Shown: positions 3,521 through 53,224 of the stretch, one piece after another
How the letters are laid out: every line of letters begins with the position of its first letter
How positions within the stretch are numbered: position 1 is the stretch's first letter
Assembly (NCBI GenBank): GCA_947624025.1
Contig: CANQIJ010000001.1
Span: forward strand, 1-58,370
Source: an uncultured Lachnospiraceae bacterium
GTDB taxonomy: Bacteria > Bacillota > Clostridia > Lachnospirales > Lachnospiraceae
DNA: 58,370 nucleotides
Reading direction: 5' to 3'
Program-made: the position numbers and the translations under genes
Notes under the pieces: generated by a model
The model's input: only the letters and a program-made list of their open reading frames with translations
Databases searched by the model: none
Told to the model about the DNA's origin: nothing

Positions 3521-3580
3521 GTTAATCTCCTTTCCAAGGTCTTCACCTCTTAGAAAATATTTTTAGTTTCATCTATGTTC

Positions 3581-3712
3581 AACCGCCGAGGCGGATTTTT
3601 TTTTGACAAACAAAAAAGCAGCGGAACGAGTGTTCCTCTGCTAAATTTAAAAAAAATAATAAATTTGTAATATTATATGTGTATATTATACCATGATCAC
3701 AGGCGTTTGCAA
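3581..3712 (-). promoter_or_regulatory. sigmaA promoter plus structured leader, copy 1
   Basis: TTGCAA(3712-3707)-16-TATAAT(3690-3685) with extended TG, then an AGCAGAGG..GCTGCTTTTTT hairpin and an ATCCGC..GCGGTT hairpin. Paralogous to 8937-9070. Confidence 0.7.
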
Positions 3713-3729
3713 GCGGAAATCTTATCCTG

Positions 3730-8025: not shown

Positions 8026-8505
8026 TTAGTCTTCATCAACGATAGGATACATCGTAACTACAGAGAAGGGCATTCCTGTATTGGTGTCACGCTCTCCACC
8101 ACCGTAGATATTTTTGGTCAGTACAATGCGATAGGAACTGACTTTTTTTATTCCACCGTTGGGTAAAACCATCCTGCCGATGGGTCCATCAAAGGAAAAG
8201 TTTTCAAATTCCTTTTCCTGGATGGAATTATCCCTCAAATAAGGGATAAGGTTTTTCTCTATGAAATATTCGTCGCTGAATAAGTCATAGAGCAGGACAT
8301 CAACGGTATTGCCATCCGTAAACGATGAAACAACCGCCTTTCTGTCCTGTTTCTTTCTCCTTAAAAGTTCTTCGTCGGATAACCCGACATGGTATGTGGA
8401 GATGTGCATACCATTAGACATATCTGCGTTTGCCAGATTCATACGATCCAGTTTGCGCAGAATCTCATTTGCTAAATGATCCATGATAATCTCCTTATGG
8501 TACAC
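8026..8505 (-). CDS. RNase A-like domain protein (CdiA-CT RNase A type)
   Basis: H...YHVGLSDEEL..R, SSF and C-terminal VVTMYP motifs characteristic of this toxin fold. Confidence 0.65.
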   Translation of the reverse strand: MYHKEIIMDHLANEILRKLDRMNLANADMSNGMHISTYHVGLSDEELLRRKKQDRKAVVSSFTDGNTVDVLLYDLFSDEYFIEKNLIPYLRDNSIQEKEFENFSFDGPIGRMVLPNGGIKKVSSYRIVLTKNIYGGGERDTNTGMPFSVVTMYPIVDED

Positions 8506-8590: not shown

Positions 8591-8827
8591 TTATGAAACT
8601 GCTTTCCATATTCCACCAATGCACTGCAGCTTTACGCCGGCATCTGCCGCCTCTGCTACTGCCTGTGCAATGGTTTTCTCCCATCTGCTCACTACGCTGG
8701 ATATATACTCCTGTGCAGTTTTACAGTTGGTTTTAAACCGACGGCTCATACGATCCTTAGCCGTTTCTGTTTCGATCTGTGCCTCGATTGCAAGACGGTT
8801 TAATTTCTTAATGTAATAGTTAGCCAT
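8591..8827 (-). CDS. Small hypothetical protein
   Basis: Start MANYYIKK (8827) after AAAGGAG; first gene after leader copy 2. Confidence 0.6.
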   Translation of the reverse strand: MANYYIKKLNRLAIEAQIETETAKDRMSRRFKTNCKTAQEYISSVVSRWEKTIAQAVAEAADAGVKLQCIGGIWKAVS

Positions 8828-8936
8828 AATAGACTCCTTTCTACTGATTGAATCAGTTTGCTGCATTTTAAGAAAGGCACGAAAAAAACAGCCTATAAAT
8901 AGCCTGTTTCACGTTTCCTTTCGGTTGCTCTATTTT

Positions 8937-9070
8937 AACCGCTATAAGCGGATTGTTAAGGTTAATATATAAAAAAGCAGCGAATCCGAGGACCCTCTGC
9001 TAAAATTTTAAAATGATAAAATTAAAAATATTTTATATTTTGATTATAACCCTCCCCCATAATTTTGCAA
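8937..9070 (-). promoter_or_regulatory. sigmaA promoter plus structured leader, copy 2
   Basis: TTGCAA(9070-9065)-16-TATAAT(9048-9043), with the same AGCAGAGG..CGCTGCTTTTTT and ATCCGC..GCGGTT hairpins as 3581-3712. Confidence 0.7.
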
Positions 9071-9117
9071 GTGTTTTCTGCAAAAACAACCATTTTAACC
9101 CTGTTTTCAGCCTTGTG

Positions 9118-9161
9118 AAAAAAGTAGCGCCATCGCTCTGGTAAAGTAAGGCGCTACTTTT
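9118..9161 (-). terminator. Intrinsic terminator closing the Cas12f-like locus
   Basis: 12-bp stem AAAAGTAGCGCC/GGCGCTACTTTT ending in a U tract on the minus strand. Confidence 0.75.
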
Positions 9162-9203
9162 AGGTTTTACCCTGCTATTTGCAGTTTTGCCATATAACTT
9201 TTA

Positions 9204-9239
9204 GTTTGGTTACTATGCTGTTTTGGAGCTTATCGAAAC
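9204..9239 (-). CRISPR. Single 36-bp CRISPR-like repeat downstream of the dCas12f-like gene
   Basis: Minus strand GTTTCGATAAGCTCCAAAACAGCATAGTAACCAAAC with GTTT...AAAC ends; 25/36 identical to 10607-10642. Confidence 0.6.
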
Positions 9240-9251
9240 GTTTCCAATACC

Positions 9252-10535
9252 TTACGCGGTCACAGGCTCCTTTTCATTTGCTTTTTCCTTCTTTTTTCCT
9301 GTCTTCTTTACTTTTTCCGCAAAATCTTCTGCCTGTGCGATCTGAAAAGCGTCTGAGATATCATCCTCTTTTGACACATCTTCCAGCGGCTTAGGCGCAT
9401 AATCCACTTTACGGACCACGATGCCATACTGTGCCGCTTTGTATGTGACAAACTGCTGGAACTCGTAAATTGCCCAGTTATTCAATACCCTGTCTTTGGT
9501 ATTAAGAGTTTCCTCAAACTCCAGATTGATATATTTTGCGGAATTTTCTACAGCAAAGTCCACTATTTTTCTGGAAAGGTAATGATTGTAAGTCCGGTTA
9601 AAATTCCGCTCATATTTGTGGAACTTCTCGAAGGGCTTCATCTTCTTGTTGTAGCCGTGTCCGCCGGCATTGGAGGTAATAGTACACTGAAGACGGTAGC
9701 GCTGTTCATGGATCTGGGCGCGTTTGCGTCTGATCTCCTCAGTATGCCCTACTAAAAGATAAAACGGCTTCTTCGTTTTATTCTGTGCTGCATTGAGAAC
9801 GCAGACTGCGGGAACGGTACGCCCGAGAAATACGCCGACTGTTTTATCTTCTTCCAGACTGACCTCCCTCTTCGGGATCTCCATACACATATTCAGGATG
9901 ATCTTTGTGCCGGAGATCTGGATGGTCGATCCGCCTACCGTATATTCTTCCTCAAAGATTCTCTGGATCTCTGTCCTGAGTGCCTGAGACCGGTGAGGAG
10001 AACCGAAAACCAACTTAAAAGTAATATCGTTGGCAAATTTAATGAATACCTCCAGATCGGTCTTATAAAGATGTTCGAGAAATTCCTGATGGGATCCGTA
10101 ATTGTGATAGAGTCCGCAGTCCGCCAGGGACTGTGACCTCAATTTAACATAGTCCCCGTGTACCAGGAGCGGTCCGTCCATACGGTAGGAGGGAAGGGAA
10201 ATCTTTCCGTAAAGAAGCCCCTTCTTACAGGCTGTTGCAAAGTCCTGTTTTACTTTCATAGAAAGGCTGCTGGTAGAAGGAAGACCTTTCGGGAGTTTAA
10301 TAGATGCGTCATAAGCACTTCCCTTTTTACTTGTGCTGATTCTGGTATAAAGTTTGTTCAACTCTTTCCTGTCTTCTGCAGATACATCCTGAACGGCCTC
10401 CATATACAGGGCTGTCATAAATTGATTCATTGCCTTATTCTGGTTAAAAGCGCCATCCCGCAGATAACTATAGACTCTGTTTACTTCCTCTTTATCCCCT
10501 ACGGGAATAAGTTGGATTTTTCTGTTTAAAAACAT
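9252..10535 (-). CDS. Cas12f/TnpB-family RNA-guided protein, predicted nuclease-dead
   Basis: 427 aa with Cas12f hallmarks (SLPSY, GGHG..KK, NH.LSRKIVDFA, INLE, W..YE.QQ...YKA..YGI.V). RuvC-I reads VGVFLG (D>F236) and the C-terminal CxxC zinc finger is absent. Confidence 0.85.
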   Translation of the reverse strand: MFLNRKIQLIPVGDKEEVNRVYSYLRDGAFNQNKAMNQFMTALYMEAVQDVSAEDRKELNKLYTRISTSKKGSAYDASIKLPKGLPSTSSLSMKVKQDFATACKKGLLYGKISLPSYRMDGPLLVHGDYVKLRSQSLADCGLYHNYGSHQEFLEHLYKTDLEVFIKFANDITFKLVFGSPHRSQALRTEIQRIFEEEYTVGGSTIQISGTKIILNMCMEIPKREVSLEEDKTVGVFLGRTVPAVCVLNAAQNKTKKPFYLLVGHTEEIRRKRAQIHEQRYRLQCTITSNAGGHGYNKKMKPFEKFHKYERNFNRTYNHYLSRKIVDFAVENSAKYINLEFEETLNTKDRVLNNWAIYEFQQFVTYKAAQYGIVVRKVDYAPKPLEDVSKEDDISDAFQIAQAEDFAEKVKKTGKKKEKANEKEPVTA

Positions 10536-10606
10536 AGTTTCTATTAAGCCTCCGTCTTCACTGCATTATTCATCCAACTCCAAATATACATAATTTCGCA
10601 TTCTGA

Positions 10607-10642
10607 ATTTGGTTACTATTTATTTTTATAGGTTTCTGAAAC
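10607..10642 (-). CRISPR. Single 36-bp CRISPR-like repeat upstream of the dCas12f-like gene
   Basis: Minus strand GTTTCAGAAACCTATAAAAATAAATAGTAACCAAAT; shares the 3' ATAGTAACCAAA 12-mer and the 5' GTTTC with 9204-9239. Confidence 0.6.
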
Positions 10643-10708
10643 CTCATAACAAAGTTTTGGTTGAGTGTCACTTAGACCTCACCCTCCGGACGCCAAATCG
10701 CCCGTTAT
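10643..10708 (-). ncRNA. Putative Cas12f tracr/omega-like RNA scaffold
   Basis: ACGGGCGATTTGGCGTCCGGAGGGTGAGGTCTAAGTGACACTCAACC forms stem GGGCG/CGTCC then a GGTGAG..CTCAACC stem, resembling the 5' ends of clostridial Cas12f tracrRNAs as I recall them. It abuts the repeat. Confidence 0.55.
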
Positions 10709-10715
10709 AAATCAG

Positions 10716-11516
10716 TTATACTGTCTGCTCTCTGATATGATCCAACTCGAAAGGAACAGCACCTTCTCCGTCTGAGATCCACCGGATCAGACAGCGCTGG
10801 ATATCAAATTCTATGGCTCTCTGCGTCAAGGAATTATTTCTTGCACAGTACATCCTTAGATTATCCATATTGTAGGGAATACCCATATCATTCAGCACAA
10901 GCTGGATGTAAGCCAGTTTTTCACTGTTATCCAGGTCCTTCAGTTCCTTTTTGATGGAGAATCTGCTTTTCAGAGCATCATCCATGATATCGATCCGGTT
11001 CGTACAGCCGATCAGGATGGCATCCACCTGTCTGCGCTTCATCAGATCGAGCTCCTGCATGATCGTCACGGTGATTCTGCTGATCTCTCCGCCAGTGGCC
11101 GCGCTTTCCGTTCCTCTTTTTTGGGAAATAGCATCAATCTCATCCAGCATGAAGATCGCCTTGGTCTTGGACATATACTGGAAGATATCACTGATGATTC
11201 CTGCGGTTTTACCGAATACACCGTCAAACAGTTTGGCAAAGTTGATATAGACAAAATCAAGGTCAAAACAATGGGCCATATACCGGCCGAAGGTCGTTTT
11301 CCCTGTACCGGGAACGCCGTAAAGCAGTGTACTGTTCAGATAATAGACCCCGTATTTAACCAGTTTATCTTTCACTTTCTGCGCATTTCGCACATCCTCA
11401 ATGATTTCGACCTGCGTTTTGGAAACAAAGTACCTGGCCATCGGGAAATCATCACAGTATTCCGCTACAAGGTATGGTGCTATATGTTCCGGAATTTTTA
11501 ATCTTGTTTTTGACAT
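10716..11516 (-). CDS. AAA+ ATPase (classic clade, single domain)
   Basis: Walker A GVPGTGKT, Walker B FMLDEID, SRH TNRIDIMDDALKSRF. Confidence 0.9.
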   Translation of the reverse strand: MSKTRLKIPEHIAPYLVAEYCDDFPMARYFVSKTQVEIIEDVRNAQKVKDKLVKYGVYYLNSTLLYGVPGTGKTTFGRYMAHCFDLDFVYINFAKLFDGVFGKTAGIISDIFQYMSKTKAIFMLDEIDAISQKRGTESAATGGEISRITVTIMQELDLMKRRQVDAILIGCTNRIDIMDDALKSRFSIKKELKDLDNSEKLAYIQLVLNDMGIPYNMDNLRMYCARNNSLTQRAIEFDIQRCLIRWISDGEGAVPFELDHIREQTV

Positions 11517-11616
11517 GTATTATCCTTTCTAAAACCTTGAAAAATGATCTATCAATTTCTATTTCGGCTGTCTGCAGTTTTGCTCTGCAGAAGAAACGGG
11601 CCTTTAACAGGCCTTT

Positions 11617-52697: not shown

Positions 52698-53114
52698 TTA
52701 ATTACCGCCACTACCTTTCATCCAGTCGGATATACTGTCTGCTGTTGTACCTAACACGCCGCCATCCGTACCAATTACTTTAAATACGACATAAACTACG
52801 ATACAGCCGACAAGACTCCATTTGGCGAATGCAAGCATTTTGTCATTCTTTGAAAAAAACAAAAGAAATAAATCAATAGCGACAAGCAGCCAGCAGAGAC
52901 TGTCACAGTAAAGACTGGAAAAATTGCTTAAAAGATTCTGTACCGTTGTCTTTGCATTGGTCGTAAGCTGAAGATCACCGGCTCTTATCATACCCTGTGC
53001 GAATAAAAAGCCGGGAAGGGCGGAAGCTTTTGCTATGATTTCGCATTTCCGATTCTGATAATAGTCGAAAAAAACATTCTTATCAGAGGTTCTTGCTTTT
53101 ACTTTTACCTGCAT
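52698..53114 (-). CDS. Small 2-TM protein (VirB2/pilin-like by position)
   Basis: Two hydrophobic helices; first gene of the T4SS unit; AAAGGAG RBS. Confidence 0.5.
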   Translation of the reverse strand: MQVKVKARTSDKNVFFDYYQNRKCEIIAKASALPGFLFAQGMIRAGDLQLTTNAKTTVQNLLSNFSSLYCDSLCWLLVAIDLFLLFFSKNDKMLAFAKWSLVGCIVVYVVFKVIGTDGGVLGTTADSISDWMKGSGGN

Positions 53115-53224
53115 TTTATATTCTCCTTTCTGCTAGTATAGTATACTATGAGAATAGCACACCTGGAATCATTTGCAAGCACTTTTTGTATAATATACCA
53201 AAAAGAAGATAAAATGGGCTTATT

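Follow-up and report, generated by a model that had tools for sequence, protein, structure and literature searches.

TldR proteins descend straight from transposon TnpB and use omega-type guides against conserved targets, and some of them are associated with flagellin or csrA genes. The oppF-associated TldRs are RNA-guided, nuclease-dead repressors (PMC13622181). The sigma-E dCas12f proteins (PDB 9n9c) have lost the zinc finger and the RuvC-III region, and the same report describes a cluster of dead Cas12f proteins near CRISPR arrays, predicted to be repressors, with guides that sometimes lie on efflux promoters and an example from Chitinophagaceae (PMC13472631). Cas12m and type IV-A systems on plasmids are established silencers that only bind their targets (PMC11656645), and Cas12m, type IV-A and Cas12b3 on conjugative plasmids are treated in PMC11656645 and PMC12669027. 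Here we describe dcas12f, a gene for a predicted nuclease-dead Cas12f1 protein in a stretch of 58,370 nucleotides from an uncultured Lachnospiraceae bacterium (the window, contig CANQIJ010000001.1; C1 of genome G000, 2.5 Mb in 275 contigs). The reading we favor, with moderate confidence, is that the protein is a reprogrammable silencer that acts by binding only, on genes of its own plasmid family. Its lineage is independent of the dead lineages described so far, but the theme is known, and the strongest functional clue lies on a sister plasmid (L001 = G401 = G415, Lachnospiraceae, same genus as G000) rather than in the window.

The window protein (P0001) belongs by sequence and fold to Cas12f1 (formerly V-U3; type V-F1), and the gene and its lesions map as follows:

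9252..10535, minus strand: dcas12f, an intact open reading frame (ORF) of 427 aa, Cas12f1/V-U3 family, predicted nuclease-dead
9828..9830, minus strand: codon TTT, Phe236, at the RuvC-I position (column of the catalytic Asp)
9519..9521, minus strand: Glu339 of RuvC-II, kept, in a motif EFE instead of EDL
9336..9404, minus strand: deletion site of the zinc finger (target-nucleic-acid-binding, TNB) and degenerate RuvC-III remnant, residues ~378-400

The best sequence match in the PDB is CnCas12f1 (8hr5, E 7e-43), with RhCas12f (9nzp) also among the best, and PADLOC assigns the protein to Cas12u3 (E 4e-68), with no Cas12u1 match at E<=0.001. CnCas12f1 is also the best fold match found by Foldseek, for which the query was an AlphaFold model used for this search only (mean pLDDT 62, modest). 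Thus the protein has the size of a Cas12f1 effector (400-500 aa) as well as its sequence and fold, and the locus shares with CnCas12f1 and RhCas12f a scaffold resembling a trans-activating CRISPR RNA (tracr), 36-nt repeats and a lack of adaptation genes nearby. Unlike these nucleases, however, it lacks the RuvC-I Asp and the finger, and with them the intact RuvC D-E-D triad. It is also much closer (~60%) to uncharacterized, intact gut-phage proteins than to the solved structures. The sequence of window 9259-10671 is identical in contigs of run X1, which may be the sample the window came from.

A homologue search found 389 proteins, and the residue counts that follow cover the 120 proteins listed, query included. 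The RuvC-I Asp and the zinc finger are present in 116 of the 120; the exceptions are P0001 (Phe), P0002 (Phe, 82%), P0003, the sister-plasmid orthologue (Tyr, 67%), and P0096 (His, 55%), all four of which lack the finger. The RuvC-I codon is TAT in the sister plasmid and GAT in three intact relatives checked. Glu339 is conserved in 120/120 proteins, but where intact homologues have an EDL/ENL-type motif, the Asp/Asn that follows it is replaced by Phe in the window protein. The CxxC..CxxC finger deletion leaves the protein ~23-31 residues shorter than intact relatives at that place. An initial annotation of this DNA had read an intact ORF of 427 aa with Cas12f motifs, Phe236 in place of the RuvC-I Asp, Glu339 retained and the finger missing, all of which is confirmed. 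It had also called RuvC-III degenerate; the context is indeed wrecked, but the RuvC-III Asp may survive in it as D392, since MAFFT places D392 of EDDISDAF in the RuvC-III Asp column, in an alignment that is ambiguous across the deletion.

Could the protein still cut or nick DNA through a rearranged active site formed by Glu339, Asp392 and another acidic residue? The retention of Glu339 and the alignment of D392 are compatible with this, and TnpB proteins with rearranged, active sites exist (PMC10691335). Yet the RuvC-I position holds a bulky and variable aromatic residue (Phe, Tyr or His), the acidic residue after Glu339 is gone, and the G401 genome tolerates the perfect self-targets described below. 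Residual cleavage therefore seems to us very improbable.

The lesions are not peculiar to the window copy. A cluster look-up showed that P0121, P0122 and P0123 carry them too, so that RuvC-I Phe/Tyr and finger loss are common to P0001, P0121, P0002, P0003, P0122 and P0123, and the reading frame is open in 6/6 of these sequences. In a FastTree tree of 112 sequences, built with the RuvC-I column removed and leaving out P0123, representatives shorter than 380 aa and those beyond P0199, P0001, P0121, P0002, P0003 and P0122 group in a single clade (support 1.0). The His-bearing P0096 is its sister (0.999), a link that long branches could inflate, and both lie inside intact proteins (0.998). The dead-clade branches are longer than those of the intact neighbors, and identity between the dead proteins and the intact phage Cas12f around them is ~60%. 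Because the clade nests among intact Lachnospiraceae-phage Cas12f, its placement indicates a dead lineage independent of both TldR and sigma-E dCas12f.

Comparison of dcas12f with the sister-plasmid orthologue gave a ratio of nonsynonymous to synonymous rates (dN/dS) of 0.17 (bootstrap 0.10-0.25) at a dS of ~1.5, with 0.22 nonsynonymous (pN) and 0.65 synonymous (pS) differences per site. By residues the ratio is 0.12 for 1-130, 0.07 for 131-230, 0.14 for 231-340 and 0.37 for 341-405, the RuvC-III tail. Other orthologous ORFs of the plasmid range from 0.04 to 0.22 (excluding one probably spurious overlapping ORF at 1.6 and several with saturated dS), which places dcas12f among the higher values. 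A closer strain, from run X5 (98% identical), retains Phe236 and differs by 11 synonymous and 14 nonsynonymous changes in the part covered (pN/pS 0.37, p 0.013). These substitution patterns indicate that dcas12f is under purifying selection and is not a drifting single copy. The initial annotation had suggested an independent domestication, to be checked by phylogeny and dN/dS, and had named a drifting copy among uniformly intact homologues as one outcome that would count against it. What we found instead is loss of the RuvC-I Asp and the finger shared by a clade, under selection and nested among intact Lachnospiraceae-phage Cas12f.

Across the wider family the RuvC-I Asp is missing in 38 of 128 representatives (those of at least 340 aa; 22 shorter ones among the 150 listed were dropped), and these are scattered over roughly at least 10 places in a tree whose deep support is weak. 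Altered catalytic sites are known from large Cas12f branches (PMC10691335). Further dead Cas12f1 lineages with full arrays lie on phage-like contigs, with RuvC-I Ser at L064:3992-6000 and, in L074-L076, RuvC-I Ala, RuvC-III lost and several scaffolds. No close relatives were found in PLSDB or INPHARED. Among the IMG/VR loci of relatives the Asp is kept in 54/55, several of them 53-60% identical and equipped with similar scaffolds, and this raises the question of whether the dead protein is a decoy or anti-CRISPR that sequesters the guides of intact Cas12f1 on phages and other elements in the same hosts or poisons its dimers. A comparable role has been proposed for phage Cas9 with a dead RuvC (PMC11656645). 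However, the plasmid retains scaffolds and arrays of its own, which a decoy would not need, and neither G000 nor G415 also contains an intact close relative (one match each), so we regard a decoy as highly unlikely.

The RNA parts of the locus surround the gene:

10646..10704, minus strand: tracr-like scaffold, with stem-loop 1 at 10687-10704, stem-loop 2 at 10662-10681 and the anti-repeat at ~10646-10658
10607..10642, minus strand: repeat 1, 36 nt, after a TGAG leader junction also found in intact relatives
10536..10606, minus strand: stretch of 71 nt from repeat 1 to the ATG, with a candidate guide at ~10577-10606 followed by the 5' untranslated region (5' UTR)
9204..9239, minus strand: repeat 2, 36 nt, 25/36 identical to repeat 1
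9162..9203, minus strand: sequence after repeat 2, a conserved intergenic module with a small hairpin, probably a trailer and not a spacer
9117..9161, minus strand: terminator-like hairpin (9120-9161), 12 bp with an 18-nt loop and a T tract

The scaffold, which directly follows the AAA ATPase gene and is the only one found in G000, was modeled on the window's own fold. Over 14 homologous copies 94.7% of cells are paired, against 29-46% in slid controls, and 6 of 13 pairs show compensatory two-sided changes; kinship between the copies inflates the shuffle test. The same scaffold type adjoins intact relatives, and a scaffold with anti-repeat together with CRISPR repeats is what Cas12f1/V-U3 systems have, although the duplex in the window is weak. 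The scaffold, the two repeats and the terminator-like hairpin that had been proposed are real features. The hairpin region (9112-9204) folds with z -3.5; hairpin 9120-9161 is absent from the output of a terminator scan whose loop limit is 8, against its 18-nt loop. The same 12-bp, 18-nt-loop hairpin recurs in many unrelated gut contigs with other flanks and belongs to no Rfam family. The scaffold pattern has no match in IMG/VR, and Rfam gave no match at gathering level, the matches by E-value being at chance level.

A spacer after repeat 2, as the initial annotation had it, is not supported. Homologous copies of this sequence lie near L001 6575 and 10111, and since the module occurs there twice without a full repeat before it, it is likelier a trailer, a recurring plasmid module, than an acquired spacer. 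Also dropped was an inverted match (16/19) of the 5' UTR to the interior of the gene, which a rough estimate puts near chance level.

Intact relatives carry their scaffold-array cassettes upstream of the gene (L017, L043, L044, L072), downstream of it (L018-L021, L073) or on both sides (L016, L028, L042). Of the four scaffolds of G401, one stands before a membrane-protein gene, a second, with a three-spacer array, before the AAA gene, and a third, with two repeats, behind dcas12f; the fourth is fused to a half repeat. In the X5 strain dcas12f lies upstream of the AAA gene, 636 nt apart, and a repeat directly precedes the last 35 nt of the 5' UTR. Because the arrangement of cassette and gene differs across intact relatives, G401 and X5, locus order is fluid, with repeat-mediated shuffling as the probable cause, and the window layout is a reduced variant of the intact relatives' arrangements. 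The layout had been taken for an undescribed one: its exact order, one scaffold with the gene between two repeats, was indeed not seen in the other loci compared, but its elements have precedents in the upstream, downstream and two-sided cassettes of intact relatives. The half-repeat-fused scaffold of G401, a natural single guide, is at C5:80024-80100 (L001 ~10000-10080), and other fused scaffolds are at L018:927, L019:1000 and L073:7292, some of them far from a cas gene and directly before another gene. Arrays in X5 (contigs aligned to window 9239-11528) have short spacers of ~16 and 24 nt. A leader-repeat junction TTTGAG/GTTT occurs in the window (10643-10648) and in the leaders of L042, L043, L064, L026 and L028. 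This junction, the 36-nt repeats and the 29-30-nt spacers recall type II-A arrays and their leader anchoring, and by that analogy may mean that spacers are loaded by the Cas1-Cas2 of the host in trans.

Evidence of what the guides might do comes from G401, where two of the four repeat-flanked spacers match their own plasmid perfectly. Spacer l1s1, which adjoins dcas12f and is flanked by two intact repeats, matches 29/29 across a TTGCAA-16-TATAAT promoter at C43:955-983. This promoter is 86 nt upstream of an operon for small proteins with no Pfam family and, by eye, signal-peptide-like N-termini. Spacer l2s3 matches 30/30 at C5:8470-8499, within a MoxR-type AAA gene that is followed by a vWA gene. 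The chance expectation for exact 29-nt matches is ~2e-10. In a weak and small control, none of 3 spacers from intact phage systems exactly matched its own record again outside the array. The initial annotation's proposal of an RNA-guided regulator gains from this perfect self-targeting promoter guide, but not in the form of a fixed, TldR-like guide: no guide is common to the window, G401 and run X5, and no target was found for the guide in the window. A promoter match that could serve TldR-like repression is seen in G401 only.

The window plasmid carries a partial counterpart of the l1s1 target:

53168..53184, minus strand: promoter -35 region before the ORF at 52698-53114 and a series of transfer genes, identical at 17/17 positions to l1s1 nt 1-17

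The same 17 nt are also exact at a second promoter of the window plasmid (G000 C125:5246), and the G401 counterpart of 53168-53184 has 2 mismatches to l1s1 within the first 4 nt (5' end). An extended -35 promoter motif is conserved at window 53168-53184, G000 C125:5246, G401 C43:983 and C5:30359; it is common to the transfer-region promoter and a second operon and may be the site of a plasmid regulator.

Several observations weigh against own-plasmid silencing. The evidence for self-targeting is limited to one genome, G401. The candidate guide of the window has no match in 300 other genomes at <=3 mismatches; nothing in IMG/VR matches it exactly over 18 nt, and its best seed in G000 is 13 nt long. 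The anti-repeat:repeat duplexes of the window reach -2.3 and -4.7 kcal/mol as compared with -10.5 and -5.4 in G401; the window's own cassette may be degenerate or untargeted. The repeat before l2s3 is short of 6 nt at its 3' end, so this guide may be disabled. Two short spacers of X5 have no match in G000 or G401, and no self-target was found for the queried spacers of the dead L064, with its long array, in its 94-kb record. Among the nearest characterized relatives the protospacer adjacent motif (PAM) is C-rich: that of RhCas12f1 is CCD, and a C-rich one is reported for a related Cas12f (PMC11641405). On their 5' side the two self-targets have different flanks (..GAAAA and ..CTCC), so one of them may be without a PAM and perhaps not bound. 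The C-rich PAM is presumably that of CnCas12f1. Attempts to derive a PAM from intact relatives returned only the arrays themselves or one 24/30 partial match in four spacer scans, and array searches in INPHARED and 401 family genomes returned nothing.

The spacers also admit a reading as pure inter-element competition, in which the system silences incoming relatives or phages, like Cas12m and type IV-A, and self-spacers are accidents from the carrier or a near-identical sibling, tolerated or disabled. Consistent with this, the spacers are full length and different in all three strains, one self-spacer lies mid-gene behind a damaged repeat, and l1s1 is 17/17 at two promoters of the window plasmid while the G401 counterpart of the transfer-gene site has its two mismatches. 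However, a search of 121 other genomes of the genus gave no full-length match for any spacer beyond the plasmid that carries it, and l1s1, which matches its own plasmid perfectly, stands between two intact repeats beside the gene. We consider pure competition possible but doubtful. For the other two G401 spacers, and for what follows the last repeat, neither G401 nor those 121 genomes contain a full match, and matches in G409, G436 and G450 were rejected as partial or repeat-boundary chance matches.

Were the protein instead a domesticated transcription factor with hard-wired specificity, as TldR and sigma-E dCas12f are, we would expect a single guide that is fixed and a single target that is conserved. 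Purifying selection and the promoter target in G401 would fit such a role, as would the fusion of a scaffold to a half repeat at G401 C5:80024, given that array minimization and guide fusion have been outlined as steps of domestication (PMC10691335). Against this, the guides are not conserved between strains, no target was found for the guide of the window, and none of the 60 window ORFs scanned belongs to a sigma factor, helix-turn-helix (HTH), oppF, csrA or flagellin family. A hard-wired regulator is thus improbable. The state of the window cassette could also mean that the locus is a remnant, the protein being kept for a guide-independent or recently lost role while the cassette decays. The diverged repeats (25/36), the weak duplex and the guide with no target found point this way, as do the longer branches of the dead clade and its dN/dS among the plasmid's higher values. 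But the frames are open in 6/6 sequences, dN/dS is far below 1 and the scaffold stems are intact with compensatory changes, and we think a remnant unlikely.

Own-plasmid silencing, competition and the hard-wired regulator share a binding-only mechanism. Under the own-plasmid silencing that we favor, the scaffold and repeat-spacer RNA would be transcribed with the AAA-dcas12f operon and pair via repeat and anti-repeat; the protein, which like Cas12f1 is probably a dimer, would bind matching DNA without cutting it and would stop RNA polymerase either at a promoter or by acting as a roadblock. The loading of RNA, DNA binding free of cleavage and the block to RNA polymerase are inferred by analogy with Cas12f1, Cas12m and TldR. 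New spacers would be loaded by host Cas1-Cas2 in trans, so that targets would vary between strains and could lie on the carrier plasmid or close relatives.

How does this compare with the known dead systems? With TldR the locus would share the logic of an RNA-guided, nuclease-dead repressor, but the window protein nests among array-associated Cas12f1 and has variable, full-length spacers, rather than descending from TnpB with a single omega-type guide. The genes beside it code for an AAA ATPase and an unknown protein of 91 aa, and are not oppF, flagellin or csrA. Nor is it a transposon TnpB: in place of a tnpA transposase and an omega RNA we find CRISPR repeats (transposon ends were not searched for as such). 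Like sigma-E dCas12f it has lost the finger and the RuvC-III region, yet the match between them is distant (E 3e-16 over residues 169-372). No adjacent rpoE with a C-terminal extension and no hth gene is present among the window ORFs scanned; the scaffold and repeats are separate rather than a fused guide, and the protein is predicted to repress rather than activate. Cas12m (type V-M), type IV-A and Cas12b3 resemble it as plasmid-borne, cleavage-free systems with known or predicted silencing of plasmid genes (PMC11656645, PMC12669027). However, their effector lineages are unrelated, the Cas12u3 match and the scaffold set the locus apart from the tracr-independent Cas12m/V-U1 effectors, and every full-length target found lies on the carrier plasmid. 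The array-linked dCas12f cluster resembles it in having dead Cas12f near arrays, a promoter guide and a predicted repressor, so that such a repressor has already been published; the published lineage is another one, and the window differs in phylum, in being plasmid-borne and in the sister-plasmid targets that lie on the plasmid itself (PMC13472631). Five names of Firmicutes taxa occur 0 times in four text supplements of that report, whose figures and unnamed accessions could include the clade. We found no paper on dead Cas12f1 of Lachnospiraceae plasmids in a literature search whose coverage leaves out most subscription journals.

The window families VirD4, VirB4-like, Rep3, ParA/ParB and ParM-like identify the window as part of a conjugative plasmid, in agreement with the initial annotation. 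The absence of tnpA and cas1 also stands: neither Cas1 (PF01867) nor Y1 TnpA (PF01797) was found in G000 or G401, both of which may be incomplete assemblies, and no serine recombinase was found among the 60 window ORFs scanned. P0003 is encoded on a syntenic sister plasmid, G401 C5 and C43 matching the window and G000 C16, C26, C159, C88, C57 and C125; C43 belongs to the same element as C5 because G000 C57 is homologous to both. Of 122 genomes of the genus, 2 have the plasmid VirD4 (E<=1e-150), and the dead gene is present in both. One neighbor recurs beside dcas12f in all three strains seen:

10716..11516, minus strand: AAA ATPase gene, directly upstream of dcas12f

The two are probably co-transcribed. 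G000 C16, C26, C57, C88, C125 and C159 are more of the same plasmid, ~138 kb with the window.

The locus captures a young, independent transition from nuclease to binder, in which dead and intact proteins are still ~60% identical, and G401 holds an array, a fused single guide and a self-target together on one plasmid. Given this identity and the coexisting forms, the origin of RNA-guided repressors from CRISPR nucleases could be tested with a matched pair. If plasmid promoters are indeed silenced, this would be a Cas12f route to RNA-guided conjugation control or plasmid competition in gut Firmicutes, and the protein would be a natural 427-aa scaffold for CRISPR interference. A bolder version, which we offer as speculation and think unlikely as a whole, is that the plasmid family made a phage-type Cas12f1 into an RNA-guided, reprogrammable switch that acts on promoters of the plasmids themselves, among them the transfer-region motif, and tunes its own or sister conjugation and surface genes by spacer acquisition; the V-U3 clade of gut phages and plasmids, with its 38 of 128 near-full-length representatives that lack the RuvC-I Asp, would then be a hotbed of repeated independent domestications.

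Elsewhere on the plasmid, a tyrosine-recombinase-like ORF, recognized by eye on G000 C125 and G401 C43, makes an integrative phase possible. Window 8783-9207 and 3557-3717 are intergenic promoter modules repeated at several sites of the sister plasmid. The same region holds genes for a Y-family polymerase, YolD, RadC, a Phd/PIN pair and a DNA methylase, and looks like a leading region. Finally, window 8026-8505 (minus strand) encodes a stand-alone CdiA-CT RNase A-like domain protein (PF18431) that is conserved in the sister plasmid.

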